The notes under the pieces: generated by a model | What the model was told of the DNA's origin: nothing | Database searches by the model: none | Seen by the model: only the letters and a program-made list of their open reading frames with translations | Position numbers and translations under genes: made by a program | From: Candidatus Scalinduaceae bacterium | GTDB taxonomy: Bacteria; Planctomycetota; Brocadiia; Brocadiales; Scalinduaceae | Length of the DNA stretch: 62,040 nt | Assembly (NCBI GenBank): GCA_046759445.1 | Contig: JBHICG010000014.1 | Span: forward strand, 1 to 62,040 | Direction: 5' to 3' | Shown: piece by piece, positions 39,327-59,943 of the stretch | Layout: each line of letters starts with the position of its first letter | Position numbering within the stretch: the stretch's first letter is position 1

Positions 39327-39911
39327 ATGACAAATGAAAAGGGACATATCCGTCGGGACATAGAGAAGCTGAGACCCGGTGAGCTTACGATTCTGGGGGC
39401 CATTGTTACAGCTATGATTGCAGTCGTTATTGCAGTTGTGTTAGAGCAGAATAAAGCCGGGACAGAAATTGATCCAGAGAAAGACGTCTATCTATTCCTT
39501 CACGGGAGAACGGATCTGCGGGAAAAAGCCGAGACCGCTCTCGTTGCATACGGATTTTCAAAGGAGAAGATTACCGTGGCATCGTCAGAAAACATTGGAA
39601 GCGTGGGCGATTATATGGCAATGCTCTGGATGCCGCCAGCCCCGGATCACATAATAATTCAACAGATAACCAGGGTTGATGAAGTAGAGCCGGAAAAAAT
39701 CTTTGGACTCTGGAAAGGCGTTTCAAAAAAGGACATAGATACTGTTTCTTTAGAAAAGGATAAAAGAGAAGAAAGAATTCACCGCAAAGGCGCAAAGAAA
39801 AGAATATTTCGGCCGGGATTACAGGATAATCAGGGATTAATACAGATACACACAGAAGATGTAACCCCCCAAAAACCTGTTGATTTTAGTAAACGGCATA
39901 ACTATTATTAA
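39327..39911 (+). CDS. hypothetical membrane-anchored protein; C-terminus reads through repeat DNA
   Basis: One TM helix; last ~45 codons overlap simple repeats and the recurrent module. Confidence 0.55.
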   Translation: MTNEKGHIRRDIEKLRPGELTILGAIVTAMIAVVIAVVLEQNKAGTEIDPEKDVYLFLHGRTDLREKAETALVAYGFSKEKITVASSENIGSVGDYMAMLWMPPAPDHIIIQQITRVDEVEPEKIFGLWKGVSKKDIDTVSLEKDKREERIHRKGAKKRIFRPGLQDNQGLIQIHTEDVTPQKPVDFSKRHNYY

Positions 39912-40032
39912 CCTCAGAATTTCCAATTCTTCTAAAGTCTTGCCTTCGGCTGAAGTAAATTCAGACATAAGCAAGACTCATTACCATATATCATATAGAC
40001 ATATAACCCATCAATTGATGGATAAGAAAATT
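39877..40032 (+). repeat. copy of the recurrent promoter/hairpin module with ~20-bp palindromic insertion in the first hairpin loop
   Basis: TTGATT-17-TATTAT, aacctcagaatttc, AGTCTTGC[cttcggCTGAAgtaaaTTCAGacataa]GCAAGACT, CCATCAATTGATGG. Confidence 0.85.
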
Positions 40033-40127
40033 ACACCTGCGAGGTGTATTTATGGTCATCTTTAAAAACGGACGCTGTCCATATTTAATCCATCCATGGC
40101 ACAATATTTAAGAAACAAGTAAGGTAA

Positions 40128-43100
40128 ATGAACACTGACCTATCTTTTATCACCAACGAAGAAAATCAAACCCTTAAAGAGCGGTTTAAAGTCCTGATTA
40201 AAGACACTTCATTCTTTGACTGCCTTGTGGGTTACTTCTATTCCAGTGGATTTTACGCCATATACCATTCTTTGGAAAACACAGAAAAGATAAGAATTCT
40301 TATTGGAATCAGCACAAGCAGACAGACTTTCGAATTACTGGAAAATGCCAACCTGTCTGCGTGCAACGCACAGGCAGATAAACCCAAACATCAACAAATT
40401 GATTTCTCACACGCCGAAACTAAACAAGAAGTGGAAGATCTCGTTCAAAAAGAAATGGAGGATTCTGAGGACAACAGGAAAGTCGAAGAAGGTGTAAATA
40501 AGTTTATAGAATGGGTTGGTAACGGCAAATTAGAAATAAAGGCTTTTCCGTCACAGAACATACACGCTAAACTCTATATTATGACATTTATGGAAGGCGA
40601 TCGTGATGTAGGAAGAGTTATAACTGGATCGAGCAATTTCACACAGGCTGGTCTGGTTGATAATCTTGAATTCAACGTGGAACTGAAAAACAGAAGTGAC
40701 TATGATTTTGCAAAAAATAAATTTGAGGAATTATGGAGTAACGCTGTAAATGTCAGCGAAAAGTATGTTCAGACCATTCAGGGTAAGACCTGGTTGAGTC
40801 AAAATATCTCCCCATATCAATTATACCTGAAATTTCTCTATGAATATTTCAAGGATGAACTCAGTCAGACAGACGAAGTGTTTGTTAAGTATCTCCCGCA
40901 GGAGTTTAAAAAGCTTGAATATCAAGAGCAGGCGGTTTTAAACGCTAAAAAGATACTCCTGGAATACGGCGGAGTTTTTGTCTCGGACGTTGTAGGGTTG
41001 GGAAAAACATATATTTCAGCAATGCTGGCAGGTCAACTGGTAGAAGGAAGAACACTTGTCATCGCTCCGCCGGTACTTTTAGAAAAATCTAACCCTGGCT
41101 CTTGGCCAAATGTTTTTTCAGACTTCCGAGTTCCGGCAGATTTTGAATCACTCGGCAAACTGGACGACCTGTTGGACAGAGGAACAGACAAATACACAAA
41201 TATTATCATAGATGAGGCACACCGCTTTCGAACCGAAACAACAATCACCTACGAAAAACTGGCTGAAATATGTCGTGGAAAAAGAGTTATCCTGGTAACC
41301 GCAACTCCTTACAATAATACTCCGAAAGATATTCTAAGCCTTCTTAAGCTGTTTCAGAAAGCCAAAAAAAGCACTATTCCAAATCTGCCTGACCTGGAAG
41401 CATTCTTTAACGGTTTGGACAAAAAACTTAAAAATCTGGACAGAAAGAAAGACTATACCGAATACATAAGTACTGTAAGAGCAAATGCACGAGAAATACG
41501 CGATAAAGTTCTTAAATATCTAATGGTACGCCGAACCAGGACCGAAATCGAAAAATATTTTAGTAAAGACATAAAAGAACAGGGTCTTAAATTTCCGGAT
41601 GTAAAAAAACCGAAACCGTTATTCTACGAACTCAATCAAGAAGAAGACGGTATTTTTAATAAAACCATCGATCTGATTGCCAATAAATTCAAATATGCCA
41701 GGTACATGCCTATGCTTTATTACGAAGGAGAAAAAGAAATTGACCAGCTTGAAAAGCAGTCCCAGAAAAACATGGGGCGGTTTATGAAAATCCTGCTTGT
41801 CAAACGGTTGGAAAGTAGTTTTTTTGCCTTTAGGAATTCGGTGGACAGATTCCTGTATTCTTACAAAAAGTTCATAAAAGAGTTGGATAACGGCAATGTG
41901 TATGTAAGTAAAAAACATACCAACAAGATATTTGAACTGTTAGAGAACGATGATGACGAAGCAGTTCAGCGATTAATAGATGAAGGCAAGGCGGAAAGAT
42001 ATGAGAGTAAAGATTTCAGAAAAGAGCTTAAAATAGATTTGCAGCTTGATCATGACATCCTTATGGAAGTCAAAAAACTGTGGCAGAAAGTAAACCGTGA
42101 CCCGAAGCTTCTAAAATTTACAAACGAACTTTCAAAAAATGCAGTCTTAAAAAACAATCATCTTATTATTTTTACGGAGTCAAAGGAAACAGCCAACTAT
42201 CTATTTAAAAATATAAATTATGAATACCAAGACAAGGTTCTTTTGTTTACGGGTGATTCAGGCGAATCTGTTCGCGATAAAGTGATTGAAAACTTTGATG
42301 CCAGGGCCCGTCATCCTAAGGAAGAATACCGAATACTTGTTTCCACCGAAGTCCTGTCGGAAGGTGTAAACCTGCATCGTGCAAATGTGGTGATTAATTA
42401 CGATATCCCCTGGAACCCGACCAGAATGATGCAGAGAGTGGGACGCATTAACAGAGTTGATACACCCTTTGATATTATCCATACCTTCAATTTTTTTCCC
42501 ACCACACAATCCAATGACCAGATAAAGCTGAAAGAAGCGGCAGAGGGGAAAATCAATGCCTTTTTGACTCTGCTTGGCGGTGATGCGGAGCTTCTAACTG
42601 AAGGTGAGCCTATAGGCTCACACGAGCTGTTTAACCGGTTGACATCAAAGAAAACACTGGAAGGCGAAGAAGAGGCAGAGGAAAGCGAACTAAAATATCT
42701 TCAGGTTATCCGGAACATCCGCGAAAAGGAACCTGACCTTTTTGAAAAAATAAAACGCCTGCCTAAAAAAGCACGCACAGCAAAGCTTAACAATGATTTA
42801 GCACAATCGCTTATAACTTACTTCAGGCGCGGGAAACTGCAGAAGTTTTTCATGGCGCTGGATAGGAAATCAACAGAAGAACTTGATTTTATATGCGCGG
42901 CAAAATTGCTTGAAAGCCAGCCTGATGAAAAAAGGAAGAAGCTCCCTGGAGAGATTTATGATCTCCTGGACAAAAACAAGGAGGCCTTTATTATCGCTAC
43001 AACCGAAGAAATGGCTGAACCGCAAATAAGAAGAGGACGCGACAGCGCTGCTAATATCCTGAGAATTCTAAAAGCAACCTTGAAAAACACTCAGAAACTC

Positions 43101-43355
43101 ACTGAGGATCAGGAATTATACCTAAAAAAAGTATTGATCCAGCTTGAAGAAGGTGGTTTGCCCAAGCAGACGGCAAAAAATACATTAAAAACCCTGGACA
43201 CACTTAAAGATGAACTGAAAAATCCTTTCAAGGTGCTGGCAGTACTTCAATCCCATATACCCGAAAGGCTGTTGGAAGAACATTATGCCGAGCAGAACCC
43301 GACAATATTCGGAAAACGTGAAGTCATACTCTCATTATATTTATCAGGTGAATAA
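40128..43355 (+). CDS. PLD-nuclease + SNF2-like SF2 helicase (RM-associated)
   Basis: HAKLY...GSSNFT (PLD), DVVGLGKT, IIDEAH, TATP, SEGVNL, QRVGRINR. Confidence 0.88.
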   Translation: MNTDLSFITNEENQTLKERFKVLIKDTSFFDCLVGYFYSSGFYAIYHSLENTEKIRILIGISTSRQTFELLENANLSACNAQADKPKHQQIDFSHAETKQEVEDLVQKEMEDSEDNRKVEEGVNKFIEWVGNGKLEIKAFPSQNIHAKLYIMTFMEGDRDVGRVITGSSNFTQAGLVDNLEFNVELKNRSDYDFAKNKFEELWSNAVNVSEKYVQTIQGKTWLSQNISPYQLYLKFLYEYFKDELSQTDEVFVKYLPQEFKKLEYQEQAVLNAKKILLEYGGVFVSDVVGLGKTYISAMLAGQLVEGRTLVIAPPVLLEKSNPGSWPNVFSDFRVPADFESLGKLDDLLDRGTDKYTNIIIDEAHRFRTETTITYEKLAEICRGKRVILVTATPYNNTPKDILSLLKLFQKAKKSTIPNLPDLEAFFNGLDKKLKNLDRKKDYTEYISTVRANAREIRDKVLKYLMVRRTRTEIEKYFSKDIKEQGLKFPDVKKPKPLFYELNQEEDGIFNKTIDLIANKFKYARYMPMLYYEGEKEIDQLEKQSQKNMGRFMKILLVKRLESSFFAFRNSVDRFLYSYKKFIKELDNGNVYVSKKHTNKIFELLENDDDEAVQRLIDEGKAERYESKDFRKELKIDLQLDHDILMEVKKLWQKVNRDPKLLKFTNELSKNAVLKNNHLIIFTESKETANYLFKNINYEYQDKVLLFTGDSGESVRDKVIENFDARARHPKEEYRILVSTEVLSEGVNLHRANVVINYDIPWNPTRMMQRVGRINRVDTPFDIIHTFNFFPTTQSNDQIKLKEAAEGKINAFLTLLGGDAELLTEGEPIGSHELFNRLTSKKTLEGEEEAEESELKYLQVIRNIREKEPDLFEKIKRLPKKARTAKLNNDLAQSLITYFRRGKLQKFFMALDRKSTEELDFICAAKLLESQPDEKRKKLPGEIYDLLDKNKEAFIIATTEEMAEPQIRRGRDSAANILRILKATLKNTQKLTEDQELYLKKVLIQLEEGGLPKQTAKNTLKTLDTLKDELKNPFKVLAVLQSHIPERLLEEHYAEQNPTIFGKREVILSLYLSGE

Positions 43356-43357
43356 AT

Positions 43358-46300
43358 ATGGATAAGCATCAAGCCCAGGAAATCATTAAAGGAACCTTTG
43401 AAAGCTCATTTGATAAAAACGTTTATACCGGATTTATAAAGAACCTTCTTAACAGGATTGACGGTTCGCCTTTTACTTACAAGGGGAACTATATTCCCGA
43501 TGCCTATAAGCAATACATAAGAACACTGGAGCGTATCGGAAAGTTCAGCGATGGTGAAAACAGTATTGATATACTTGTAATAAATCTCCAGAAAGAAACA
43601 TCCCTTGAACGCGCCCGTACCATGCAGAGAAACTTTATTGCCTGGTACTTAAACGGCAGCCGGGGTGGAGAGTTGAAAGACGCTGCTCTTGCCGCCTTTG
43701 TATCTCCCGATAAAGAAGACTGGCGGTTTTCACTGGTAAAGATGGATTATAAGTTCGAACCTGCCTGCGCCACAGACGCGGCAGGCAGTCAAAATCCGGC
43801 CTGTCTGCGTGCGGAGACGCACAGGCAGGCCAAAATGAAGGTAAAAGAAGAATTTACCCCTGCCCGGCGCTGGTCGTTCCTTGTTGGTAAAAACGAAAAA
43901 AGCCATACCGCGCAAATCCGTCTTGTTGATATCCTGAAAGACGATGAGCAAGACCCTACTCTGGAAGAGATTGAAAAAGCCTTTGATATTGAAACTGTCA
44001 CCAAAGAGTTTTTCCTCGAATACCGTGGACTTTTCCTTCGCACCAAAGATGAGCTGGACAAGATAGTAACTCAAGCTTCCAGCTTGAGAGATGAATTTGA
44101 ATCTAAGGGAGTTGATACCGTAAACTTTGCCAAGAAACTTTTGGGACAAATTGTGTTTCTATACTTTCTACAGAAAAAAGGCTGGTTTGGCGTGAGACGC
44201 GATAATGAGTGGGGCACCGGCTCAAAACATTTTCTAAGGGAACTGTTTGAGAAAAAAGTAACTCAAGCTTCCAGCTTGAGCAAAGAAAACCACAAGCAAG
44301 ATGCTTGCGATACTACAAATTTCTTCAATGACATTCTGGAGCCGCTTTTCTATGACGCATTATCTAGAGATCGCTCTGATATTGATCATTGGAATGATCA
44401 TTTTAAATGTAAAATTCCCTTTTTAAACGGCGGACTATTCGACCCTATTGGTAATTATAGCTGGTATAATACTGACATTCTGCTACCCAATGAACTTTTC
44501 TCCAATAATGTAAAAACTAAAGAGGGTGACAAAGGTACCGGAATACTGGATGTCTTTGATCGCTACAACTTTACAGTAAAAGAGGATGAACCCCTTGAAA
44601 AAGAAGTAGCCATCGATCCAGAGCTTTTGGGAAAGGCATATGAAAAATTCAATGCCATCCGCCCGGATAATTATGCTGAATTTAAGAAGGCTCTAAAGAG
44701 TGGAAAGGCTGGTGAGGAAAACAAGTTTAACAAAAAGTTTGGTGTCTATTACACTCCCCGAGAAATTGTCCACTACATGTGTCAGCAGAGTCTGATGAAT
44801 TACCTGCACACAGTAACTCAAGCTTCCAGCTTGAGAGGTGATAGTTCACACAAGCAAGATGCTTGTGTTACTATAGCCAAAGAAGACATCGAATCCCTGA
44901 TACATCTCGGAGAACAGGTAAGTGAAAATGAGGCAACCGCTCTTTTAAAGGAAAAATTGATTGCTGAAGGAAAACAGAAGACTACTAAGAACAAGCCGGT
45001 ACTGCCAGAAAGCATAAAAAACAACGCAACTATGATTGACAATAAACTGGCGGAAATCACAGTCTGCGATCCGGCAGTAGGCTCCGGTGCCTTTCCGGTG
45101 GGCATGATGAGCGAGATTGTAAAAGTCAGGAACGTGCTGTCCGTTTTCCTTTCCAAAGTAATTCAAGCATCCAGCTTGAGAAACCACAAGCAGGATGCTT
45201 GTGATACTGAGCAGAGAACAATCTACGATTTCAAACGTACTTGCATTGAGCACTCCCTTTATGGCGTGGACATCGACCCAGGCGCAGTGGAGATTGCCAA
45301 ACTTCGGTTGTGGTTGTCTCTGGTAGTAGATGAAGATGATATTAAGAATATCAAACCGTTACCAAATCTGGACTATAAAGTGGTTTGTGGAAATTCTCTG
45401 CTTGGGGTAGAAAAAAACCTTTTCAATTTAAACTCTTTCAATGAACTGGAAAATCTGAAACCTCTCTTTTTCAATGAAACCAATCCAACAAAGAAACAGG
45501 AATATAGAGTTAAAATTGATGATCTGATTAGTAAAATAACCAACGGCCATAGAGAATTTGATTTTGAGGTCTACTTCTCGGAAGTGTTCCATCAAAAAGG
45601 CGGGTTTGATGTGGTCATTGCCAATCCGCCGTATGTTCAGATAAAGCAAATACCGTTGAATGATAGAAAAATATTTATTAAAAAATACAAATCTGCAGTT
45701 GGACGTTTCAATCTATTCTATTTTTTCTTAGAAAGATCCAACGATATTCTTAGACCTTCCGGATTTTCAACCTATATTGTTCCAGATAGGTTACTACTAA
45801 ATACTCAATGCGATAAATTACGAAAATGGTTACTAAAAGAGCAAACTATACTTGAAATAGATTCATTTGCAGAAGGGGTTTTCCAGGCGGTAGTTGATAA
45901 TATTATTATTTTTTGTTGCAATATGCGTTGTCAGAATAAACTTATCATAGCTAAGAACAAAGTAGACATTGATGCTTTAAAAAATATATCTCCAGTTGAA
46001 ATACCTATTACTTATTTTTTAAATTCTCCAAGTAATCAATTTGATTTGACATACAACCCAAAGATTGCCAATCTAATTAACAAGATTAAAAGCAATTCAT
46101 TGTCTCTCGAAAGAATAAGCGAAACAAAAGATGGAATTATTCAAGGCAAAGTAGCTGATAAGCTTTTTTTAAACATGCCGTTGGATAAAGATTCCAAGCC
46201 TTTGTTATTTGGGGAAGATATAAATAGGTATTCAATTAAATTTAGAAATAAATGGGTTAATTATAAACCAAATGAAATGATGCGCTTGGAAGTAAAACGT

Positions 46301-46795
46301 AGAGGACCAGGTGTTAGGCACGGTCTATGGATGAGAACTCCGGTAATCTTTGAAAGAAATAAAATACTTACACGTCAGACCGCTGACGAAATAATTGCTG
46401 CTTACGACACTGATTGTTTTTATTATTCCAATACGCTTCATGGTACAACTATCACTAATGATAAATATAATCCATTTTATGTGCTAGCTCTTTTAAATAG
46501 TAAACTGATTTCATGGTATTACAGAAGTACTACCGCTGAGGAAGGTAAAGTATTCGCACAAATTAAGATCGATCTTTTAAGGAAGTTACCGATAAAAGAA
46601 ACTTCTGACACAGAGCAGCAACGTATAACTAATATCGTTGAGCACATTCTCCCAATTACTAAGGACAAAGATTATCTGCAAAACCCTCAAAAACAATCCA
46701 AAGTAAAAGTCATTGAAGCCGAAATCGACCAGCTCGTTTACAAACTCTACGACCTTACGCCGGAAGAAATCAAAATCGTGGAAGGAGAAAAATAA
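43358..46795 (+). CDS. Eco57I/type IIG-like N6-adenine DNA methyltransferase with C-terminal TRD
   Basis: FLNGGLF, GVYYTPREIV, CDPAVGSGAF (motif I), ANPPY (motif IV), EIDQLVYKLYDLTPEEIKIVE tail. Confidence 0.88.
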   Translation: MDKHQAQEIIKGTFESSFDKNVYTGFIKNLLNRIDGSPFTYKGNYIPDAYKQYIRTLERIGKFSDGENSIDILVINLQKETSLERARTMQRNFIAWYLNGSRGGELKDAALAAFVSPDKEDWRFSLVKMDYKFEPACATDAAGSQNPACLRAETHRQAKMKVKEEFTPARRWSFLVGKNEKSHTAQIRLVDILKDDEQDPTLEEIEKAFDIETVTKEFFLEYRGLFLRTKDELDKIVTQASSLRDEFESKGVDTVNFAKKLLGQIVFLYFLQKKGWFGVRRDNEWGTGSKHFLRELFEKKVTQASSLSKENHKQDACDTTNFFNDILEPLFYDALSRDRSDIDHWNDHFKCKIPFLNGGLFDPIGNYSWYNTDILLPNELFSNNVKTKEGDKGTGILDVFDRYNFTVKEDEPLEKEVAIDPELLGKAYEKFNAIRPDNYAEFKKALKSGKAGEENKFNKKFGVYYTPREIVHYMCQQSLMNYLHTVTQASSLRGDSSHKQDACVTIAKEDIESLIHLGEQVSENEATALLKEKLIAEGKQKTTKNKPVLPESIKNNATMIDNKLAEITVCDPAVGSGAFPVGMMSEIVKVRNVLSVFLSKVIQASSLRNHKQDACDTEQRTIYDFKRTCIEHSLYGVDIDPGAVEIAKLRLWLSLVVDEDDIKNIKPLPNLDYKVVCGNSLLGVEKNLFNLNSFNELENLKPLFFNETNPTKKQEYRVKIDDLISKITNGHREFDFEVYFSEVFHQKGGFDVVIANPPYVQIKQIPLNDRKIFIKKYKSAVGRFNLFYFFLERSNDILRPSGFSTYIVPDRLLLNTQCDKLRKWLLKEQTILEIDSFAEGVFQAVVDNIIIFCCNMRCQNKLIIAKNKVDIDALKNISPVEIPITYFLNSPSNQFDLTYNPKIANLINKIKSNSLSLERISETKDGIIQGKVADKLFLNMPLDKDSKPLLFGEDINRYSIKFRNKWVNYKPNEMMRLEVKRRGPGVRHGLWMRTPVIFERNKILTRQTADEIIAAYDTDCFYYSNTLHGTTITNDKYNPFYVLALLNSKLISWYYRSTTAEEGKVFAQIKIDLLRKLPIKETSDTEQQRITNIVEHILPITKDKDYLQNPQKQSKVKVIEAEIDQLVYKLYDLTPEEIKIVEGEK
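44258..44313. repeat. REP-doublet in-frame in the MTase gene (other copies 44066-44088, 44813-44871, 45158-45207)
   Basis: GTAACTCAAGCTTCCAGCTTGAG ... CACAAGCAAGATGCTTGCGATAC; translated as VTQASSL...HKQDACDT. Confidence 0.9.
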
Positions 46796-47040
46796 AATAT
46801 CTGATTGAGCAGATAGATAAAATAATGATAGCTACCATTAAGAAATATTATGCCAGAGCCTGAATCTTTTTTACTACTGTTTAATATCTGCACAACGACT
46901 TAATACTTACTTGTTACACAAGCCATATTTTCATATACTATCATCGCAACAAATTGTCTACTTGAGCCGTAAGAGTAATCGTTATTTGTATCAGAGTAGC
47001 TGAGAGATTTAATTGGTTTTTGTAAGAAAGATTCTTAACT

Positions 47041-48297
47041 ATGTATTTAACAGAAGTAATAATAAAAAATGTTCGTTGTTGTAAAAATTTAAAACTATCA
47101 TTTGATGGGAAACCAGAATCTATTTTAATTGTTGGGGATAATGGCGATGGTAAATCTACAGTTGTACGTAGCATCGCTATGGGATTATGTGATGAGTCTA
47201 GTGCTGCCGCTTTATTACGAGATTTGCCGGGTGATTTTGTTAGGGAAAATGAGCAAGAGGCTTTTATTAGCGTTACTTTTAAGAATATAGATGGTAAACT
47301 TTATAAAATTGAAACAGAAATTAAATCTTTGAAAGCATTTGAGAAAATTAGGCAAAGAGTTTACAAGGTAATCAAAGGTAAGAAAGAAAAGGTTGATCCA
47401 GATTTGTTTCCTTGGGAAGATATATTTGTTTCTGCTTATGGTGCTGGTACTCGAACTCAAGGAACAGAGGATTACAATTACTATGTCCCTGTTGATGCTG
47501 TTTATCCTCTTTTTAAATACGATGTTCCTCTTTTACAGAATCCAGAACTAGCGTTTAGAAGAATTGCTGACGATGCCCAAAGGCGAGGTAGAAATACTGA
47601 GGATAAAATTAAAAGGGCGAAACAGATGTCAAGCTATTTGCTAGATTTGCTAAAAAAGGCACTTAATCTTGATTCGAAAGATCGAGTGTATTTAACTTCT
47701 ACAGGGTTGAAAGTAAAAAGCACGCGCTGGGGAAAGGTTGAACTAGGAGCGTTAGGAGATGGATATAGAGCAGTTACTACTTGTGTTTTAGATTTGCTAT
47801 CATGGTGGATGCTTTCTCTTAAACTTCATGATAAAAGTATTTACACAAATAGAAGTGTGAAAGGAATTGTTCTTATTGACGAAGTCGAACAACATTTACA
47901 TCCCAGATGGCAAATAAAAATGGTTCAGATATTAAGTGAACTATTTCCGGATGTTCAGTTTATACTCACATCGCATTCTCCTCTTGTCATCTCTGGCTAC
48001 AAAGGAACGTCTATTTATCAACTGGAAAAGGGAATTTGTACAGTTAAGAAAGCCTATGGTTGGTTGCCTGAAAATGTTTATCGCGAAATCATGGGGCTGG
48101 AAAAGTTGAGGTCTCTTAAAATGGAAGAAGAAATACAAAGATATAAGGAGCTTAATTTTCTTTACCTTAAAGATAAGCTTTCTAATAAAGATAGAAATGA
48201 AATGAATAGAATAAAAAAGGAACTCTTAAGAATTTTGCCCAGCACTGATCCAATAGTATTGACTTCTGAATTAGAAAATCTTAGTAAAAAGTTTTAG
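47041..48297 (+). CDS. ABC/AAA_21-type ATPase (PtuA/Septu-like)
   Basis: GDNGDGKST Walker A, AYGAGTR, LGDGY signature, LIDEVEQHLHPRWQ, QFILTSHSP. Confidence 0.85.
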   Translation: MYLTEVIIKNVRCCKNLKLSFDGKPESILIVGDNGDGKSTVVRSIAMGLCDESSAAALLRDLPGDFVRENEQEAFISVTFKNIDGKLYKIETEIKSLKAFEKIRQRVYKVIKGKKEKVDPDLFPWEDIFVSAYGAGTRTQGTEDYNYYVPVDAVYPLFKYDVPLLQNPELAFRRIADDAQRRGRNTEDKIKRAKQMSSYLLDLLKKALNLDSKDRVYLTSTGLKVKSTRWGKVELGALGDGYRAVTTCVLDLLSWWMLSLKLHDKSIYTNRSVKGIVLIDEVEQHLHPRWQIKMVQILSELFPDVQFILTSHSPLVISGYKGTSIYQLEKGICTVKKAYGWLPENVYREIMGLEKLRSLKMEEEIQRYKELNFLYLKDKLSNKDRNEMNRIKKELLRILPSTDPIVLTSELENLSKKF

Positions 48298-48300
48298 AAA

Positions 48301-48957
48301 ATGAGAAATGTAAAACGTAAAATAAAACCGCCCGAATTGGCAAGAAATGCGAGTTCTTGGAAGAAAGAGTTATTAAGAGAATTAGATAAAGGAACAATGG
48401 TAAATAAGAAAAAGCTCGAAACTATTTACCGTAGATATAACATTCCTAATGTGAAAAAAACCTTAAACAGCATGTATAACAATCATTGTTGTTATTGTGA
48501 AAGTAAAGTAGGAGTTGTTGATTATCCCCATATCGAGCATAGGAAGCCTAAAAGAAAGTATCCTGAATTAACCTTTGATTGGGATAATTTGAATTTAGCT
48601 TGCGAAGTATGTAATAAGAATAAGGGAGAGAAGTATAATAAAAAAGCACCTATTTTGGATGCGGTAAAAGATAATCCTATTACTAAACATTTATCATACC
48701 GAATAGGAGTTGGGAGTATTGACAGAACATATAATACCGAAAGGGGGAAAACAACAATAGAACATACTAAACTTAACCGAGACTTATTGAGCAGAAGTAG
48801 GGTAGATGTTTTTTGGCATGTAATGAATGTTATTGATTTTATTAAAAGTAATCCTAGAGATTCAGATAACGAACTTAGAAAGGATGATTTAAAACGATTA
48901 ACTAAGGGTCAGTATGGTTCAATGATAAAATGGTTAATGGGTTGTTATTTGAATTGA
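48301..48957 (+). CDS. HNH endonuclease (PtuB/Septu-like)
   Basis: CCYCES...HIEHRKPK...WDNLNLACEVCNKNKG. Confidence 0.85.
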   Translation: MRNVKRKIKPPELARNASSWKKELLRELDKGTMVNKKKLETIYRRYNIPNVKKTLNSMYNNHCCYCESKVGVVDYPHIEHRKPKRKYPELTFDWDNLNLACEVCNKNKGEKYNKKAPILDAVKDNPITKHLSYRIGVGSIDRTYNTERGKTTIEHTKLNRDLLSRSRVDVFWHVMNVIDFIKSNPRDSDNELRKDDLKRLTKGQYGSMIKWLMGCYLN

Positions 48958-48973
48958 AGGAATGAGATAAAAT

Positions 48974-49342
48974 ATGGCATATGGTAAGGAATTAATTTTG
49001 GATATGCATAATTGCGATCCTACAACTTTCACTAGAAAACATATACGGAATTATTTTAAAAAATTATGTTCTTTAATAGACATGGAAAGATCAGATTTAC
49101 ATTGGTGGGATGATTTGAAAACCCCAGAAGAGGAAAAAGAAACAGAACCTCACTTAAAGGGGACAACAGCAATTCAGTTTATTAAAACGAGCAATATTAC
49201 AATCCATACATTAGATTTGCTGAAAAGTGTTTATTTAAATATATTTTCTTGTAAAGATTTTGACTCTGAAATAGTTAAGCAGTTCACGCAAGAGTGGTTT
49301 AAGGGTAAAATAGTAAACAATCATGTTATCGAAAGGAAATAG
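48974..49342 (+). CDS. S-adenosylmethionine decarboxylase-like (pyruvoyl) proenzyme
   Basis: YGKELILDM, GTTAIQFIKTSNITIHT (Ser at the pyruvoyl position), NIFSCKDF. Confidence 0.72.
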   Translation: MAYGKELILDMHNCDPTTFTRKHIRNYFKKLCSLIDMERSDLHWWDDLKTPEEEKETEPHLKGTTAIQFIKTSNITIHTLDLLKSVYLNIFSCKDFDSEIVKQFTQEWFKGKIVNNHVIERK

Positions 49343-49344
49343 AT

Positions 49345-50703
49345 ATGCTAATAGTTGAAAAAGAAATAAAAATACCAAGTGAAGACGGCTATAGCGGATT
49401 ATTAGATTATTTCCGTAAAAAGGTACTGGAGAGCTTGTTATCAGATGAAACTCCTATTCGGTTTGTCATTACACAAACAGATAACGATGGGTATTCTTGT
49501 GAGTTAGGTGTTTTATCAGGTGGTGAAAATTTAAAAGGGTCAATCTTTGATTTCAATAGGCGGAAGTTTGAGAATGTAGATCAATTTAATACAGTTTTAT
49601 TAGTTCCTACAGGGATTGGCTGCGAAATTGGAGGTCATTCAGGTGATGCTGGACCAATTGCCAGACTTTTAGCTTCAGCTTGTGACAACTTAATTACTCA
49701 CCCAAATGTTGTTAATGCTTCGGATATTAATGAATTGCCGGAGAATGGGTTATATGTTGAAGGAAGTGTGATAACGCGTTTATTGATGGGAACGGTTGCT
49801 TTACAGCCAGTAAGGTCTAATAGGGTATTACTTGTTATAGATGAGCATTATGAAGATATTCTATTTGATGATTCGGCTATCAATTCTGTTTCTGCTGCGC
49901 GGGCAGCTTTCGGACTTGATTGTGCTGGTGTTGTTAAAATGCCAGAGCAGATTCTAATGAGAGCTTTGTGGTCAAAAGCCGGTAGAGCAGTTGGAAGAAT
50001 TGAGTTCTTTGATAAATTATGCCAAGTAATAGAAGAAAATAGAAATAACTTTGACGCACTTGCTTTATCATCAGTAATCCAGGTGCCAGAACATTTCCAC
50101 AAGGATTATTTTGATAACGAGAAGAATATGGATGTAAATCCATGGGGTGGTGTTGAGGCGATATTGACACATGCAGTTTCAAGTATTTACAATATTCCAT
50201 CCGCTCACTCTCCAATGATGAATTCAAAGTCTGTTTTAGACTTGAAAGTGGGAGTGGTTGACCCTCGAAAATCTGCCGAAGCAATTTCCATGACTTATCT
50301 ACATTGTATACTTAAGGGATTGCATAAAAGTCCAAAAATTATTAATGATTCCGAATTAGTTTGTCATCCTGATTTATTGAATGTATCTGATATTTCTTGT
50401 CTAGTCATTCCTGATGGCTGTGTTGGCTTACCAACATTGGCTGCTATGGAGCAAGGCATTCCGGTAATAGCTGTAAAAGAAAACAAAAATAGGATGAAGA
50501 ATAATTTAAACGAACTTCCATTTTTACCCGGGAAACTATTTATAGTCGAAAATTACTTAGAAGCTGTTGGTGTTATGCAGGCTCTAAGAGCAGGTGTAGC
50601 ACTGGATACTGTGAAACGTCCCATCGAATATACAAAAGTAAAACTAGCCAAATCCAAAGTTGAAGACTTTGTTAACAATGTTCTAACAAAACATGCCCAA
50701 TAA
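49345..50703 (+). CDS. DUF3326 family protein with N-terminal extension
   Basis: VPTGIGCEIGGHSGDA, LITHPNVVNA, YVEGS, PWGGVEA, DPRKSAE, NYLEAVG. Confidence 0.78.
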   Translation: MLIVEKEIKIPSEDGYSGLLDYFRKKVLESLLSDETPIRFVITQTDNDGYSCELGVLSGGENLKGSIFDFNRRKFENVDQFNTVLLVPTGIGCEIGGHSGDAGPIARLLASACDNLITHPNVVNASDINELPENGLYVEGSVITRLLMGTVALQPVRSNRVLLVIDEHYEDILFDDSAINSVSAARAAFGLDCAGVVKMPEQILMRALWSKAGRAVGRIEFFDKLCQVIEENRNNFDALALSSVIQVPEHFHKDYFDNEKNMDVNPWGGVEAILTHAVSSIYNIPSAHSPMMNSKSVLDLKVGVVDPRKSAEAISMTYLHCILKGLHKSPKIINDSELVCHPDLLNVSDISCLVIPDGCVGLPTLAAMEQGIPVIAVKENKNRMKNNLNELPFLPGKLFIVENYLEAVGVMQALRAGVALDTVKRPIEYTKVKLAKSKVEDFVNNVLTKHAQ

Positions 50704-50879
50704 ATAGGGACCGTTAACACATAAATTGACAAATGATTCAGTCCTTCAGCGATATCTTTTGTACACATATTGACAACTGAGAATTTTCTTTTAATCTTTT
50801 TATTTAGTTGGTACTCTTTATTAAACTTGTACAAGAGTATTTTATTGGCAGTGTGTCATTTGAAATAGGAGGGATTAGA

Positions 50880-51104
50880 ATGTCTCAAAAAGTCGGTGTA
50901 GTTATAGAAAAAGATGAACATGGTTATTATGCATATTGCCCAGAGCTTGAAGGCTGCCAGACACAAGGTGATTCTTTGGAGGAAGTTTTGAGTAACATAA
51001 AAGAAGCTATTGAACTTTATTTAGAAACATTATCAGAGGACGAAAAAAAGGTATCACTAAGCAAAGAGATTCTAACAACTACCTTAGAGGTGGGAATTGC
51101 CTAA
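50880..51104 (+). CDS. hicB: HicB-like antitoxin
   Basis: YYAYCPELEGCQTQGDSLEEVLSNIKEAIELYL; AGGAGG RBS before ATG 50880. Confidence 0.85.
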   Translation: MSQKVGVVIEKDEHGYYAYCPELEGCQTQGDSLEEVLSNIKEAIELYLETLSEDEKKVSLSKEILTTTLEVGIA

Positions 51105-51297
51105 GTTGCCACGATTAACACCGCAGGAAGCAGAAAAGATGTTATTAAAAGCTGGTTTTGAAATGATTAGAAGCAAAGGTAGCCATAGAATATACGCAAA
51201 AGATAATAGAAGAATTGTTATTCCATTTCATAGTGGAAAAATATTGCACCCAAAGATAGTTAAACAAGTACTTCAAAAAACAAAAAATACCAAATAG
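51097..51297 (+). CDS. hicA: HicA-like toxin
   Basis: LLKAGF...KGSHRIY...VIPFH. Confidence 0.85.
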   Translation: MPKLPRLTPQEAEKMLLKAGFEMIRSKGSHRIYAKDNRRIVIPFHSGKILHPKIVKQVLQKTKNTK

Positions 51298-51453
51298 AAA
51301 TAGTATCCCATCTTGCCTCAGAGAAATTGAGATCCGCCAAGCAAGACGGCGGGCAAGCAGCGCCTGTTTTTTGGCATAGAGAAAAGAAGTTATTCGTTTA
51401 TTGTTATTTGATGCAAGAAGCAAGAAGCTAAAGGCAAGAAACTAAAATAATAT

Positions 51454-51503
51454 TTACGTCTCTTTCCATTCGCCATAATCCTTTGTTGAGACTTTCCAGC
51501 CCT
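51454..51503 (-). repeat. short displaced copy of pyrK 3' end
   Basis: Reads ...KVSTKDYGEWKET* on the minus strand, matching 31408-31450 and the pyrK tail. Confidence 0.75.
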
Positions 51504-51537
51504 GTTTTTTGCACCATTCAAAGTCCGATACCATTTA

Positions 51538-54510
51538 CTATCCAATTTCTGGAGAAAAGCCCTTTCGAATGGTGTTTTCTGTTATGGTGAGAGGTTCCAT
51601 GAACTGAAGGACATAATCTGGGCCTCCTGCTTTAGAACCGATACCGGACATCTTAAATCCACCGAATGGCTGTCTGCCCACAAGTGCCCCCGTAATCTTG
51701 CGATTAATATACAGGTTACCTACTCGAAATTCACTTATCACCCGCTTGATATTATCAGGACTGCGAGAATAGAGGCCTCCGGTGAGAGCGTATTCAGTTC
51801 CATTGGCGACTTCCAGGGCTTCATCTAAGTCTTTCACTCTCATGATTGCCAGAACAGGTCCGAATATCTCTTCTCTGGCTAAACGGTGATGAGGAAGAAT
51901 CCCCTCAAAAATGGTTGGTCCAATAAAAAAACCTTCTTTCGGGCACTCTGCCTGGAAAAGCATCCGACCCTCTGATTTCCCTATCTCAATGAAATTCGAT
52001 ATCTTTTTCAGTGCTTTATCATCGATGATGGCGCCTATCTGAGTGGCCGGGTCCATCGGATCTCCAATCTGTAAACTTCTGGTGGCTTCTACTGTCCGTT
52101 CCCTGAATCTATCGTAAGTATCTTCCAGCACAATAACCCTGGAGCATGCCGAACACTTCTGTCCCTGAAACCCGAATGCTGATTGTACCACTCCTGTAAC
52201 TGCAGCATCAAGGTCAGCATCTTCATCAACAATGATAGCGTTCTTTCCACCCATCTCTGCCACCACTTTCTTAATTCCCCTCTGCCCCGGTTGAATGACA
52301 GATGCCTTCTGGTTTATCTCCAGTCCGACCTCTTTGGAACCGGTAAAAGCGATAACGTCTACGTCTGGATGCTCAACCATCCATGAAGTTACCTCAATTC
52401 CGGAACAAGGGAGATATTGGAAAATCCCATGTGGAATTTCTGTATTATTGACTACCCGTGCTAGAAAGGCGCCTGTGATGGGTGACAGACTGGATGGTTT
52501 ATAGATGACAGTGTTTCCCGTAACTAAAGCTGCCATAGACATGCCGGTTGAGATGGCCAGAGGGAAGTTCCAGGGAGCTATGACAAGAGCCACTCCACGG
52601 GGTTGGTACGAATAGAGATTGTTCTCTCCCGGCATAGGATCCATCTGACAGGGACGACCCAGGCGTATCATCTCCCTGGCGTAGTATTCACAAAAGTCAA
52701 TAGCTTCGCATACATCCGCATCTGCCTCTCGCCAGGTCTTGGAGACTTCCAAAACCTGTAATGCGGCCAATTCACCTCGGCGAGAGCGCAGGTTTTCTGC
52801 GATTTTCAAAAGCAGTCTGCCCCTTTGCCGGGTATCTGTTTCCCGCCACTCAATGAAAGCTTTCCTGGCAGCAGCCACAGCACGTTCAGCCTCTTCTTTT
52901 GAGGCCAGGAAAGTATGTCCGATAACCTGGGATGGCCGGGAAGGATTGATGGAGACTTGTTTATTTTCACCGTGAACTTCTTTCCCGTCAATCAGTAGAG
53001 GATATACTTTCCCTAACCGTGTCTGGACTTTTTCCAGGGCATTTCGAAAATAATTGCGTGAATTGATCCTGGCAAAATCGTGTAACGGCTCCTGATGGAA
53101 CGGTTTAATCTCTTCATCCGAGACCGCTTTTTCTTTCAATGCTTCCGGACTTACCTGAGGTGGTTCTGGCCTGCAAAGGAGTTCTTCGACATTGGTATCC
53201 TTAGTAAAAGTCTGTCGCAGGAATGATTCGTTGGAGGTATTTTCCATGAGTCGCCTGACGAAATAAGATATCCCGGGAAGGAATTCACCAATTGGCACAT
53301 ACTCGCAGACGTTGTAGCCCAGTTGAAGAATTGCCTTTTTGATCGGATCGGCCATCCCGTAAAGCATCTGGATTTCAAAGGCGGCAGGGGGGTGGTCAAG
53401 GTGCTTTGCGTATATAATGCCGTGTGCGAGGGAACGAACGTTGTGACTGGCGATAGCTGTGTAGATTAGGGGATAATTTTCAAGGCACTGTCGTGTTGCC
53501 TCCTCAAAGGCGTTATCCGTCTCACGCTTGTCTAAAAAGACAGGGACTGGCCAGTTATCAAGCATGGCCGCTACCTGCTCGTAGTCCCAATAGGCTCCCT
53601 TAACCAGTCGCACGGTGAGAGTTCGTTTCCGTTCCCTGGCCCAATCTATCAATTCCTTAAGGTCTTTTCCTGAGTCTTTCAAATAGGTTTGAATCACGAT
53701 ACCGGCTCTTGGATTTTCACTGAATTCTTCCTCTTCAAGCAGGCTTTTGAAAATGGCAATGGTCAGGTCCTTGAACTTATAATGCTCCATGTCGATATTG
53801 ATGAAAGATTCGTACTCCTTTGCCTTCCTGAAGATTGGGCGCAGGCGTTCTTTGACCGTCTCAATGCTTCCAGCAAAATTTACGGGATCCATCTGGGAGT
53901 ATAAAGAAGATAGCTTGACAGAGATGCTGAGTCGAGGTAATCCAATGTCCTTGCGAGTGTCAGGAACAGGCCATTTTATAATCTCTGTTCTCAGCTCATC
54001 GAAGAGCTCCTGATAACGTTTCTGGTAGTCCAAAGCCTCTTTCTCACTGACTACAGCTTCACCCAGAATGTCCAGGGTGAAAAAAGTTCCCTGATCCCAA
54101 AGTGCGCGAAGACGTGGAAGAGCGTCCCGGGGAGTTGGCGCAATGATAAAGCGCCCGGCCATATCCTGGACGTTGTTTCTAATCATGCTAGCTGCTAAGG
54201 GTCCGGTAATGGGGTTGTTGATTAATGTATCTAAGACCAACTTTAGGAACGATGGAAGTTTTATGCCAGGTTGTGAGAAATACTCACGTATGTGCTGACT
54301 TATCTGATGCGGTGATTTTAGATTGGGAAGTACATCTACTAACCGAAACATCTGGACTTTGAAAGTCGGATGTCGTATACACCAATCAAGTATCTTGCCA
54401 CTCCACCAGTCTTTTTTAAAGATGGATGGGGTATCATCTCCTATTAATTGAAAGATTTTTAGACCAAGTTGTTGGATTTCTTCATCGAACAGGTGTTTGT
54501 TTTCACGCAT
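51538..54510 (-). CDS. putA: bifunctional proline dehydrogenase / P5C dehydrogenase
   Basis: VRLVKGAYW, ASHN, RRLMEN (PRODH); FTGS, EMGGKN, QGQKCSACSR, EEIFGP (ALDH). Confidence 0.93.
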   Translation of the reverse strand: MRENKHLFDEEIQQLGLKIFQLIGDDTPSIFKKDWWSGKILDWCIRHPTFKVQMFRLVDVLPNLKSPHQISQHIREYFSQPGIKLPSFLKLVLDTLINNPITGPLAASMIRNNVQDMAGRFIIAPTPRDALPRLRALWDQGTFFTLDILGEAVVSEKEALDYQKRYQELFDELRTEIIKWPVPDTRKDIGLPRLSISVKLSSLYSQMDPVNFAGSIETVKERLRPIFRKAKEYESFINIDMEHYKFKDLTIAIFKSLLEEEEFSENPRAGIVIQTYLKDSGKDLKELIDWARERKRTLTVRLVKGAYWDYEQVAAMLDNWPVPVFLDKRETDNAFEEATRQCLENYPLIYTAIASHNVRSLAHGIIYAKHLDHPPAAFEIQMLYGMADPIKKAILQLGYNVCEYVPIGEFLPGISYFVRRLMENTSNESFLRQTFTKDTNVEELLCRPEPPQVSPEALKEKAVSDEEIKPFHQEPLHDFARINSRNYFRNALEKVQTRLGKVYPLLIDGKEVHGENKQVSINPSRPSQVIGHTFLASKEEAERAVAAARKAFIEWRETDTRQRGRLLLKIAENLRSRRGELAALQVLEVSKTWREADADVCEAIDFCEYYAREMIRLGRPCQMDPMPGENNLYSYQPRGVALVIAPWNFPLAISTGMSMAALVTGNTVIYKPSSLSPITGAFLARVVNNTEIPHGIFQYLPCSGIEVTSWMVEHPDVDVIAFTGSKEVGLEINQKASVIQPGQRGIKKVVAEMGGKNAIIVDEDADLDAAVTGVVQSAFGFQGQKCSACSRVIVLEDTYDRFRERTVEATRSLQIGDPMDPATQIGAIIDDKALKKISNFIEIGKSEGRMLFQAECPKEGFFIGPTIFEGILPHHRLAREEIFGPVLAIMRVKDLDEALEVANGTEYALTGGLYSRSPDNIKRVISEFRVGNLYINRKITGALVGRQPFGGFKMSGIGSKAGGPDYVLQFMEPLTITENTIRKGFSPEIG

Positions 54511-57242: not shown

Positions 57243-58247
57243 ATGAGTTTACAAGCAACAAGTAAAGACCCAAAACATAATAAAGGTGCTGATGCAATAT
57301 GTGAGGACGTCTTATCATCTGACGTTAATCCCAAAGCTTTGAAAGGTGCACATACAGAAAGCTTATCAATGGAAGAGGCAATACGTAAATCTAAGGTCCT
57401 AATAGAGGCGCTGCCATACATACAGTCATTCAAGGATAAGATAGTAGTAATTAAGTTTGGCGGTAGCGCTATGGGCAACATAAAGACCTTTCAAAGTATC
57501 TTGCAGGATGTAGTTTTTATGAAGACTGTAGGGATGAAGCCCATCATAGTGCATGGCGGTGGTCCTCATATAACCAAAGAAATGAACAAAAGAGGTAAAA
57601 AACCTTTTTTTGTAAATGGTTATAGAGTTACTGATAAAGAGACTTTAGAGATTGCAATAGACGTTCTCGTAAATAAGATAAGCAGTTTAATTGTAAATGA
57701 GATAAAAGAAATGGGAGCTGACGCTTTATGTGTATGGCATGGAAAGAGAAGTCCATTGAAGGCAAAAGAATATGTGATTAAAGAGCAGGACAAATCAAAA
57801 AAATTTAACATTGGTTACGTGGGTGAAATTACTGAAATTGAATGTGAAACATTTGCTAATTTGTGTGAAAGTGGCAAGATACCTGTAGTACCACCAATTG
57901 CAGAGGGAACAAACGAAGAAAACTTTAATGTAAATGCAGACAATGTAGCTTCTTTTATCGCACACTTTTTAAAAGCTGAAAAATTAGTATTTATATCAAA
58001 TACACATGGAATATTAACTGACCCATCTGATCAGGATTCATTAGCGTCTACCTTACATGAAAATGAGGTAAATGATTTAATAAAGCGTGACGTAATAAAT
58101 GGCGGTATGCTTCCAAAAGCACAAGCTTGTATGTCAGCTTTAAGAGCAGGTGTAAGAAAGGCGCATATTATTGATGGTAAGATATCTCATTCTTTGTTAC
58201 TTGAGATTTTTACGGATAAAGGAATTGGAACACAAATCATAGTATAA
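57243..58247 (+). CDS. argB: acetylglutamate kinase (true start may be ATG 57369)
   Basis: EALPYI, VIKFGGS, VHGGGP, NVNAD, GGMLPK, EIFTDKGIGT. Confidence 0.93.
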   Translation: MSLQATSKDPKHNKGADAICEDVLSSDVNPKALKGAHTESLSMEEAIRKSKVLIEALPYIQSFKDKIVVIKFGGSAMGNIKTFQSILQDVVFMKTVGMKPIIVHGGGPHITKEMNKRGKKPFFVNGYRVTDKETLEIAIDVLVNKISSLIVNEIKEMGADALCVWHGKRSPLKAKEYVIKEQDKSKKFNIGYVGEITEIECETFANLCESGKIPVVPPIAEGTNEENFNVNADNVASFIAHFLKAEKLVFISNTHGILTDPSDQDSLASTLHENEVNDLIKRDVINGGMLPKAQACMSALRAGVRKAHIIDGKISHSLLLEIFTDKGIGTQIIV

Positions 58248-58548
58248 CTTGTGATGGAGATAGTGAAGTAAATGTATTTCTGGCCTCTTGAAAAAACTAA
58301 AACACAAATATTTTCTAACAAATAATGTTTCTGGTTGTGCAACAACCTTCAGGGTAAAAGTGTTTTAATGGTAAATGAAGCGTAAGAAATTATTGAGGAC
58401 GTAATTCATCTGGCGTTTTAGGCGGTGTAGTTTTGAGGCATTTTGAGATTTGGTCTTTTTGATTATCACCCACTTCAAAAGGGCATACTAAATTAACCTT
58501 TCCGTTCTTTTCTCACATCTCACATAAGATTCGTATAAGGAGAATTAT

Positions 58549-59733: not shown

Positions 59734-59943
59734 ACGACCTGGAAATTCTATAACATATTGAAATATAAGGACTTTGTGCGTTAAAAAAATAGTAACTGTG
59801 TAACTAAGTAATTTAGTAATTAAATTTCGCAAAATTTATGTCCTGAATTCGATTCAGGATAAACAATGTTGCCATTTTCTCTCCAATTACTTAATTACCC
59901 AGCTACTCAATTACTAAGTTAGCGACTGAAGGGAGCTAATTTA

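Follow-up and report, generated by a model that had tools for sequence, protein, structure and literature searches.

Why should a Septu anti-phage gene pair be followed, within a few nucleotides, by the genes of two metabolic enzymes? The question is raised by a cassette lying in a 62,040-nucleotide stretch of contig JBHICG010000014.1 from a Candidatus Scalinduaceae bacterium (the whole stretch analysed, hereafter the window). Septu is among the commonest anti-phage systems, and the restraint and triggering of its PtuA and PtuB proteins (PtuAB) are only partly understood. A sequence-only reading of this DNA had proposed that a SpeD-like enzyme, resembling S-adenosylmethionine (SAM) decarboxylases, and a DUF3326 protein extend the Septu genes into a candidate new four-gene defence system. 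The open reading frames (ORFs) of the cassette are as follows:

47041-48297, + strand: PtuA, 418 amino acids
48301-48957, + strand: PtuB, 218 amino acids
48974-49342, + strand: SpeD-fold pyruvoyl decarboxylase proenzyme, 122 amino acids
49345-50703, + strand: DUF3326 enzyme, 452 amino acids

The genes lie in the order ptuA-ptuB-decarboxylase-DUF3326, share the + strand and are separated by 3, 16 and 2 nucleotides (nt); the G+C content over 47-51 kb is 0.31-0.35 versus 0.47-0.49 in the adjacent putA gene. The description of four co-directional, AT-rich genes was therefore correct, and Pfam and PADLOC profiles confirmed all four family assignments. Taken together, the cassette combines two intact parts in tight packing, the Septu pair and the two-enzyme unit.

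The coupling of the decarboxylase to DUF3326 (hereafter the pair) extends far beyond the window. Relatives of the N-terminally extended DUF3326 protein were collected from genome contigs (19 loci, from many phyla by record title, 54-87% identity), from metagenome contigs (79 loci, taken from the best 80 of 557 relatives) and from IMG/VR (55 viral contigs); hidden Markov models were built from the first loci, and all six frames were scanned. The bacterial contigs, namely the window, locus L014 and the genome and metagenome loci, carry 97 DUF3326 copies. A decarboxylase gene stands immediately upstream of 85 of them, 64 being SpeD-like and 21 belonging to the pyridoxal-phosphate (PLP) Orn/DAP/Arg type (PF00278/PF02784); the usual spacing is 0-3 nt for the SpeD-like genes and a 14-nt overlap for the PLP type. 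Ten of the 12 copies without an upstream decarboxylase have less than 700 nt of upstream sequence. The remaining two are L130, which has an interrupted PLP gene further off, and the first copy of L138, which lies directly after PtuB.

A similar coupling was observed on the viral contigs. Specifically, the partner of DUF3326 is SpeD-like in 35 of the 55 loci (E 1e-4 or better), a PSD-like enzyme of the pyruvoyl type in 11 (6 Pfam-verified, 5 by BLAST cluster) and an enzyme of the ornithine-cyclodeaminase type in 3 (one Pfam-verified), while no partner was identified in 6, one of them with a weak SpeD-like match. In the annotated subset of these loci, the pair has portal, terminase, head-completion and tail genes around it, and on the strength of these hallmark genes we conclude that the viral loci are real phages. 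A tblastn search of 50,697 records of deposited phages and 72,556 records of PLSDB plasmids gave no match to DUF3326 at E 1e-5, and PHROGs v4 contains no DUF3326 family at E 1e-5; since deposited phage genomes and PHROGs gave no match, phage carriage of the pair rests on the IMG/VR contigs. On two of these, L037:9349-15801 and L090 (contigs of 241 kb and 173 kb), a 2150-residue protein without Pfam match directly follows SpeD-like-DUF3326.

The two enzymes are also found fused to each other, DUF3326 with PF00278 in P0001 and P0003, and SpeD-like with DUF3326 in P0023 (562 amino acids). Because three unrelated families fill the decarboxylase slot and fusions exist, decarboxylase and DUF3326 form one pathway that needs a decarboxylation. 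In conclusion, the pair is a fixed, mobile two-enzyme unit, moving between phyla and into phages.

We then classified the gene or genes that immediately precede the decarboxylase in the same orientation, in the 71 loci with enough upstream sequence:

18 of 71 loci: PtuA+PtuB upstream
20 of 71 loci: U286+U509 upstream (HD-like pair)
6 of 71 loci: U400 upstream (about 400 amino acids, membrane protein)
7 of 71 loci: PRMT-like methyltransferase + cyclase/TPR protein
4 of 71 loci: DUF350 group, downstream
16 of 71 loci: other

Three assignments were corrected by hand: L023 and L029 were moved to PtuAB on the basis of PADLOC, and the first copy of L121 to U509. L029 retains only a C-terminal PtuB remnant, behind a transposase. 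The recurrence of SpeD-like/DUF3326 with PtuAB across taxa, which the sequence-only reading had put forward as a check, is thus documented by the 18 PtuAB loci listed above. Treating the pair as an extension of Septu was right in that it recurs behind PtuAB; it also stands behind U286+U509, U400 and PRMT-like modules and, in phages, alone.

Behind PtuB, the decarboxylase follows at a distance of 4-125 nt, with one gap of 358 nt. Both the SpeD-like and the PLP types of decarboxylase are joined to PtuAB, and two PtuB subtypes are represented by best profile, PDLC00337 (window, L014) and PDLC00328 (L019, L023, L025). On a FastTree phylogeny of 147 DUF3326 proteins (143 different rows), the PtuAB label requires 9 changes, of which well-supported branches force at least 6, against a mean of 16.4 in label shuffles; none of 500 shuffles was as low as 9. 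The juxtaposition of PtuAB and the pair therefore arose, or was kept, repeatedly, as at least 6 changes are forced on the DUF3326 tree. The 15 pair-linked PtuA proteins cluster apart from 9 unlinked Planctomycetota PtuA with 2 label changes, the outgroup being small and long-branched, and on this sequence tree a single origin of the pair-linked PtuA is possible.

Three genomes illustrate how the surroundings of the pair change. In G020, which belongs to the family of the window, PtuA and PtuB are 42% and 44% identical to those described here, and they are followed by SpeD-like and DUF3326 proteins with 88% and 84% identity. In G001, of the same genus, U400 precedes SpeD-like (94%) and DUF3326 (87%), beside a type III restriction-modification (R-M) system. 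G005 carries the same HKD-SNF2 and type IIG genes as the window, and then AAA_13, an M78/DUF4411 pair and a C-terminal DUF3326 remnant (L013:9581-10183), the remnant lying at the window-like place and AAA_13 with M78/DUF4411 where PtuAB would be. Judged by sequence comparison, G005 and the window represent cassette turnover in one hotspot. That near-identical pairs serve unrelated partners suggests a diffusible link rather than a partner-specific protein contact. In conclusion, the link with the Septu pair recurs and is more than chance adjacency, and Septu is only one of several partners, the pair not being a Septu-specific accessory.

These data bear directly on the main alternative reading, that the two halves of the cassette are independent neighbours: Septu would be autonomous, and the pair would be a mobile, polyamine-type auxiliary-metabolic cassette settling at the ends of island operons, where it is read through and has no effect on defence. 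Partner modules are indeed swapped freely around a near-identical pair; all 55 phage loci carry the pair alone, with no match to PtuA or PtuB (0/55); the pair occurs in polyamine, PspA-YjfC and transporter contexts; and 10 of 11 sampled Septu loci are without it. What such independence would not lead one to expect is that in 44 of the 71 loci the pair forms the 3' end of an operon directly behind one of only three module types (PtuAB, U286+U509 or U400), on the same strand and with short gaps, that PtuAB is combined with both decarboxylase types in at least six separate placements on the DUF3326 tree, and that the pair-linked PtuA form their own cluster. Nor is there a conserved backbone on either side to make a hotspot flank. 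Weighing these points, we regard independence as possible, though doubtful.

The idea that the pair is itself a conserved flank of a defence hotspot was considered and rejected, as none of the remaining genes, to the left or the right, is shared consistently among the loci.

The alternative upstream modules were characterised further. U509 shows invariant H..HD-like motifs; Pfam HD was matched in 5 of 16 members (best E 0.035), and the family falls into one Atlas cluster with HD in 16% of members. It has no sequence match in the PDB, and its AlphaFold2 (AF2) model (predicted local distance difference test score, pLDDT, 69.5) gave nothing in Foldseek at E 0.001 or better. Homologues of U509 occur in 3 of 401 genomes of the phylum of L021, 2 of them distant and without the pair, which is too few to judge dedication to the pair. 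Neither U286 nor U400 could be matched informatively in the PDB or Pfam; Kyte-Doolittle windows mark U400 as a polytopic membrane protein in each of 5 members. Modules of the U286/U509/U400 types adjoin R-M genes in L017, L021, L024, L105 and L106, and these neighbours make a defence role for U286+U509 and U400 a reasonable prediction.

Another fixed partner recurs upstream of the pair in L027, L127, L130, L131 and L144. It consists of a PRMT-like methyltransferase and a larger protein (about 470 residues), in which TPR repeats occur at L027 and an adenylate/guanylate-cyclase domain is weakly matched at L127 and L131.

Departures from the simple order were seen at some PtuAB loci. L121:3894-12877 carries tandem systems, U509-PLP decarboxylase-DUF3326 and then PtuA-PtuB-SpeD-like, and in L138:1657-7384 PtuA-PtuB-DUF3326 comes first, with another SpeD-like-DUF3326 pair behind it. 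Where PtuAB is of the second subtype, ptuA is adjoined by the gene of a 4-HFC-P synthase (MfnB-like, PF04476, E 1e-37 to 1e-43); the MfnB-like loci are L019:4831-6816, L023:4741-6661, L025:1743-3608, L146:3589-4320, L154:3658-4386, L155:3678-4409 and L166:3754-4509. A protein of about 393 amino acids without assigned family also lies next to ptuA in L019, L023 and L025. The additional genes beside ptuA hint at a six-gene version of the cassette with further small-molecule chemistry.

At the Septu end of the cassette, PtuA matches the PADLOC profile PtuA PDLC00269 (E 7e-47) together with Pfam AAA_15, AAA_21 and SMC_N, and its Walker A residues G32, N34 and K38, its Walker B residues D280 and E281, and H312 do not vary among the 14 pair-linked PtuA compared. 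PtuB matches PADLOC PtuB PDLC00337 over residues 1-215 of 218 (E 2e-49) and Pfam HNH (E 1e-8), and C63, C66, H80, N96, C101, C104 and N105, comprising the HNH His/Asn and two CxxC pairs, are likewise invariant in 14 of 14. The first two genes thus correspond by sequence to Septu, with a Walker-type PtuA ATPase followed after 3 nt by an HNH PtuB, full-length profile matches, retained catalytic residues, and the usual order and spacing. The operon differs from Septu in its two further enzyme genes, neither of which has a PADLOC model.

The PADLOC profiles ATPase_I-A and HNH_I-A of type I-A retrons also match the PtuA and PtuB of the window. Retrons are described, in the available text of PMC12819146 and PMC12673091, as co-opting PtuAB as an effector restrained by the adjacent module, and type I-A retrons (Retron-Ec78/Eco7) resemble the cassette in joining PtuAB with an unrelated module thought, in those same texts, to control it. 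They differ in that the window has neither a reverse transcriptase nor an msr/msd non-coding RNA, and in that the added module consists of two metabolic enzymes placed downstream. Specifically, no reverse transcriptase family was found among the window ORFs, and an Rfam scan of 39500-52000 with E up to 1 gave only a chance small RNA match and no retron non-coding RNA.

Turning to the last gene, DUF3326 is a large family, found in cyanobacteria, plastids and many phages, for which no mechanism has been described. The protein of the window matches Pfam PF11805 (E 9e-92) with residues 83-423, covering model positions 2-336 of 337, and is divided as follows:

49345-49590, + strand: N-terminal extension of DUF3326, about 80 residues, outside the Pfam match
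49591-50613, + strand: DUF3326 Pfam core, PF11805

The gene is single-copy in the source genome and patchy among its relatives, being found in 7 of 41 related genomes searched, 6 of them above the Pfam cut-off. Structure prediction, which had been suggested for this protein, gave a confident AF2 model (pLDDT 79.5; predicted template modelling score, pTM, 0.82) with alpha/beta Rossmann-like lobes; it revealed no close solved relative and no readable function. Foldseek against the PDB returned only a lumazine-synthase-like subdomain (E 2e-4, TM score to query 0.22), a VIA wide structure search returned GT-B glycosyltransferases, epimerases and saccharopine dehydrogenases (Z 9-10.8, about 140 of 452 residues), and a profile search of PDB sequences gave no match.

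The decarboxylase of the window matches Pfam AdoMet_dc PF02675 (E 4.6e-13) and phrog_3125 (E 2e-16), and its closest solved structure is the Thermotoga maritima AdoMetDC 1TLU (E 5e-11); it is class 1b AdoMetDC-like. For the T. maritima enzyme, the available text of PMC10407285 gives S63, H68 and C83 as processing and catalytic residues. The corresponding positions are:

49190-49192, + strand: Ser73 of the SpeD-like protein, the 'KTSN' Ser, processing residue
49205-49207, + strand: His78 of the SpeD-like protein, aligned to T. maritima 1TLU
49250-49252, + strand: Cys93 of the SpeD-like protein, aligned to T. maritima 1TLU

All three are invariant in 18 of 18 SpeD-like sequences, including phage copies and the canonical SpeD of the genome itself; the serine is that of the 'KTSN' motif which the sequence-only reading had singled out for mutation. 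The class 1b AdoMetDC/SpeD fold and its Ser/His/Cys triad are therefore present, and an adjacent or dedicated SpeE is absent: no spermidine synthase was found in or beside the cassette, as the sequence-only reading had stated, and the SpeE of the genome lies on another contig (C2), beside the canonical SpeD. Given this canonical SpeD-SpeE pair, the SpeD-like protein of the window is by its sequence an extra, 'anomalous' SpeD homologue.

Anomalous homologues of this kind have precedents. In the accessible part of PMC10407285, SpeD homologues that lack a neighbouring SpeE are in many cases decarboxylases of arginine or ornithine, and PMC10407285 and PMC9992855 describe, as far as their available text goes, phages carrying neofunctionalised SpeD-type or polyamine enzymes. 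The SpeD-like protein shares with the SpeDA/SpeDC enzymes the status of an extra copy, the lack of a SpeE beside it, the kept processing residues and the occurrence in phages. It differs in its fixed partner, which is DUF3326 and not SpeY, HSS, SpeE or CASDH/CASDC; DUF3326 is not mentioned in the available portions of PMC10407285 or PMC9992855.

A guide to the product comes from pavettamine biosynthesis. According to the available part of bioRxiv 10.64898/2026.06.12.731819, formation of the symmetric triamine N-(5-aminopentyl)pentane-1,5-diamine, on the route to pavettamine, requires two proteins: PavA, which includes a domain resembling carboxynorspermidine decarboxylase, and the DUF3326 protein PavB. 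The pair of the window shows the same coupling of decarboxylase and DUF3326, with a 2-nt gap, and sister loci use the same PLP decarboxylase fold as PavA, overlapping or fused to DUF3326. There are differences: the decarboxylase of the window is a 122-residue pyruvoyl enzyme of the SpeD fold, whereas PavA is PLP CANSDC-like with a Rieske domain; no Rieske or JmjC family (the PavC-type partner) was found in the cassette by Pfam; and, compared with PavB, the DUF3326 of the window has the extra N-terminal domain and is set in a defence island. By analogy with PavA/PavB, the product of the pair is probably a polyamine-type amine.

Further indications come from the neighbours and fusions of the pair. 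Several of the 16 bacterial loci without a recognised upstream module have polyamine-type contexts: DUF350-DUF1190-GSP_synth-pair in L159, DUF2170-PspA-GSP_synth-pair in L165, the pair followed after one gene by Spermine_synth in L117, a GNAT gene downstream of the pair in L151 and L152, and major facilitator superfamily transporters upstream of it in L148, L150 and L167. P0002 combines DUF3326 with NNMT/PNMT-type and SET methyltransferase domains, P0005 combines it with an adenylation-carrier module (non-ribosomal peptide synthetase-like A-PCP), and P0012 is a SpeD-like+GNAT protein; these fusions to amine-type methyltransferases, GNAT and A-PCP modules support an amine product. The canonical SpeD-SpeE pair that the genome possesses on another contig counts in the same direction.

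A functional analogue, and only that, is the CASDH/CASDC route to spermidine, which has the same two-step logic of a condensation followed by decarboxylation of a carboxy-polyamine, and for the PLP partners in sister loci the source annotation gives the name carboxynorspermidine decarboxylase. DUF3326 differs from CASDH in not belonging to the saccharopine-dehydrogenase family by sequence, the structural likeness between them being generic (Z 9.4, about 130 residues).

The sequence-only reading had suggested another chemistry, in which the SpeD-like enzyme decarboxylates SAM and the pair produces or senses a SAM-derived metabolite that gates the nuclease, or guards the R-M enzyme against SAM depletion by phages. 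The SpeD fold with its intact processing triad and the SAM-dependent type IIG enzyme encoded directly upstream are in line with this, as are the PRMT-like, SET and NNMT-type methyltransferases that partner the pair elsewhere. So are P0010 and about 16 similar proteins of 276-307 amino acids, in which the SpeD-like domain is followed by a C-terminal part of about 160 residues; in P0010 this part weakly matches Spermine_synth (E 5e-5) and class I methyltransferases (E 6e-4). SAM or decarboxylated SAM (dcSAM) chemistry is possible for some SpeD-like members such as these.

For the pair itself the case is weak. In sister loci and phages the SpeD-like enzyme is replaced by PLP Orn/DAP/Arg-type or PSD-type enzymes, which are not known to act on SAM, and the fusions together with PavA/PavB point to an amine derived from amino acids. 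Moreover, the SpeD-like protein has Thr before the processing Ser, where the canonical SpeD of the genome has Glu, its subfamily carries an insertion of about 12 residues, and the arginine and ornithine decarboxylases among SpeE-less homologues (PMC10407285, available text) argue in the same direction. The R-M neighbour is not conserved across loci, and nothing links the pair to it as a guard. It is therefore unlikely that the pair makes dcSAM, and we consider a SAM-based explanation of the cassette very improbable.

How might such an amine act beside a nuclease? We propose that the decarboxylase removes a carboxyl group from an amino acid or a carboxy-amine intermediate, and that DUF3326 would perform the joining step to give a polyamine-type amine, after the example of PavA/PavB. 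The diffusible amine could serve as a brake or safener, either inhibiting the effector or shielding host tRNA, DNA or membrane, and would thereby let the operon persist and spread at little cost. During an attack by phages this brake would be relieved, or overridden through the sensing of PtuA itself, and phages with their own pair would gain a polyamine supply and possibly a means to hold effectors down. A brake exerted on PtuAB by a neighbouring module has its precedent in retron-held PtuAB, as far as the available descriptions go. That the amine of the pair restrains or buffers the co-expressed effector is a proposal we judge evenly balanced between being right and wrong. If a Septu lineage is repeatedly joined to an amine-making unit, this would point to metabolite-level control of the nuclease or to buffering of its cost, and DUF3326 would gain a testable role, working with a decarboxylase on a so far undescribed path to amines of the polyamine type.

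Several observations weigh against this coupling of amine and effector. Septu is described as functioning with two genes. PtuB matches occur in 10 of 401 Planctomycetota genomes, and in only 1 of 11 loci outside the window (L177) does a decarboxylase follow PtuB; conversely, the pair evidently works without an effector in phages and in polyamine-type clusters. No domain is shared among PtuA, PtuB, U286, U509 and U400 (hhalign, all probabilities <1%), and since the alternative upstream modules share none, there is no common ligand receptor. The HD assignment of U509, made from sequence motifs, is tentative, and the fold matches of the modelled DUF3326 appear generic and Rossmann-like, so that its chemistry cannot be read from them. 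Finally, the loci share ancestry and the same DNA may be present twice among the contigs, so that the counts overstate the number of independent events.

The presence of copies both in phages and beside nucleases would also be explained by self-marking, in which host tRNA or DNA would be given an amine-type modification and so be spared by PtuAB and other effectors, and the pair of a phage would protect its own or the host nucleic acid. Phage thymidine hypermodification, in which amino acids are appended and decarboxylases then act, offers a parallel. The two Rossmann-like lobes of the DUF3326 model are reminiscent of nucleotide-sugar enzymes, and Septu is reported, in the available text of PMC13096335 and PMC12673091, to cleave tRNA-Tyr. 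On the other side, no nucleic-acid-binding or transferase domain was found in SpeD-like or DUF3326, and the polyamine contexts and the fusions to small-amine methyltransferases, GNAT and peptide synthetase-like modules point to a free metabolite, as does the free triamine yielded by PavA/PavB (preprint cited above, available part). A membrane protein such as U400 does not fit as the partner of a nucleic-acid mark. Self-marking thus seems to us improbable.

A broader version of the amine-brake proposal would make the decarboxylase and DUF3326 the core of an undescribed family of virus-host conflict systems, the amine being a signal or 'metabolite antitoxin' for swappable effectors of three kinds, Septu nuclease, HD-like enzyme or membrane protein, which phages would silence with a captured copy of the same core as counter-defence. 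We hold this broader version to be rather unlikely. Because phages carry it as well, the pair is a candidate site at which phage and host clash over metabolism. The claim that no system of this composition had been described still stands, none having been found in literature searches or in PADLOC-DB v2; among the main texts searched, none joined Septu/PtuAB with such a decarboxylase, and none was relevant on polyamine decarboxylases in defence.

The surroundings of the cassette, assigned by Pfam and PADLOC profiles except for the intergenic region, are listed below:

40128-43355: HKD+SNF2 helicase, upstream of the cassette
43358-46795: type IIG R-M enzyme, directly upstream of the cassette
46796-47040, + strand: intergenic region before ptuA, 245 nt, presumed promoter region of the cassette
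50808-51104: HicB, downstream of the cassette
51097-51297: HicA, downstream of the cassette

Beyond HicBA lies putA, on the strand opposite to the cassette. The setting in a defence island, between an R-M locus and HicBA, was accordingly as first described. Sigma-70-like matches in 46796-47040 are weak, with 9 of 12 positions at 46911-46944, and their frequency is not above that in shuffled sequence; the consensus scan of the cassette region for promoters and terminators as a whole remained at chance level, and found no terminator-like site on the + strand inside the cassette. From the layout of the genes, the Septu pair would be transcribed together with the decarboxylase and DUF3326.

Just two sequencing runs contain the complete stretch, and it may derive from them. 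The window was also compared with four sequencing runs, two of them RNA libraries, all in the form of assembled contigs. In the four runs, few contigs lie on ptuA-ptuB and many on the part from SpeD-like to HicA; contig depth neither ranks the genes nor shows transcription. The SpeD-like-DUF3326-HicBA part is covered by contigs that are 85-99% alike, some of which depart from the window immediately before the SpeD-like gene begins, their loose ends falling at 48980 and 48992. Unlike sequence at this very place is the pattern expected from differing neighbours, and as such it favours the independence of Septu and the pair.

Other features of the window were noted in passing. About 6.5 kb downstream of the cassette, at 57243-60873, lie genes for an amino-acid kinase, a class III aminotransferase and an ornithine carbamoyltransferase (argB/argD/argF-like); the presence of ornithine-metabolism genes near the cassette is probably a coincidence. 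A second defence cluster, at 20926-26367, comprises a GmrSD-type restriction enzyme (20926-23934) and a SMODS nucleotidyltransferase (24911-25831), the latter followed by a 175-residue ORF without Pfam match. Finally, at 15789-20014 a complete uvrC (15789-17684) and, further on, another piece encoding the UvrC C-terminus (19607-20014) enclose a PIN-like/DUF433 pair (17779-18397) and a HigB/HTH pair (18978-19592), an arrangement that looks like an insertion with a duplicated uvrC 3' end.

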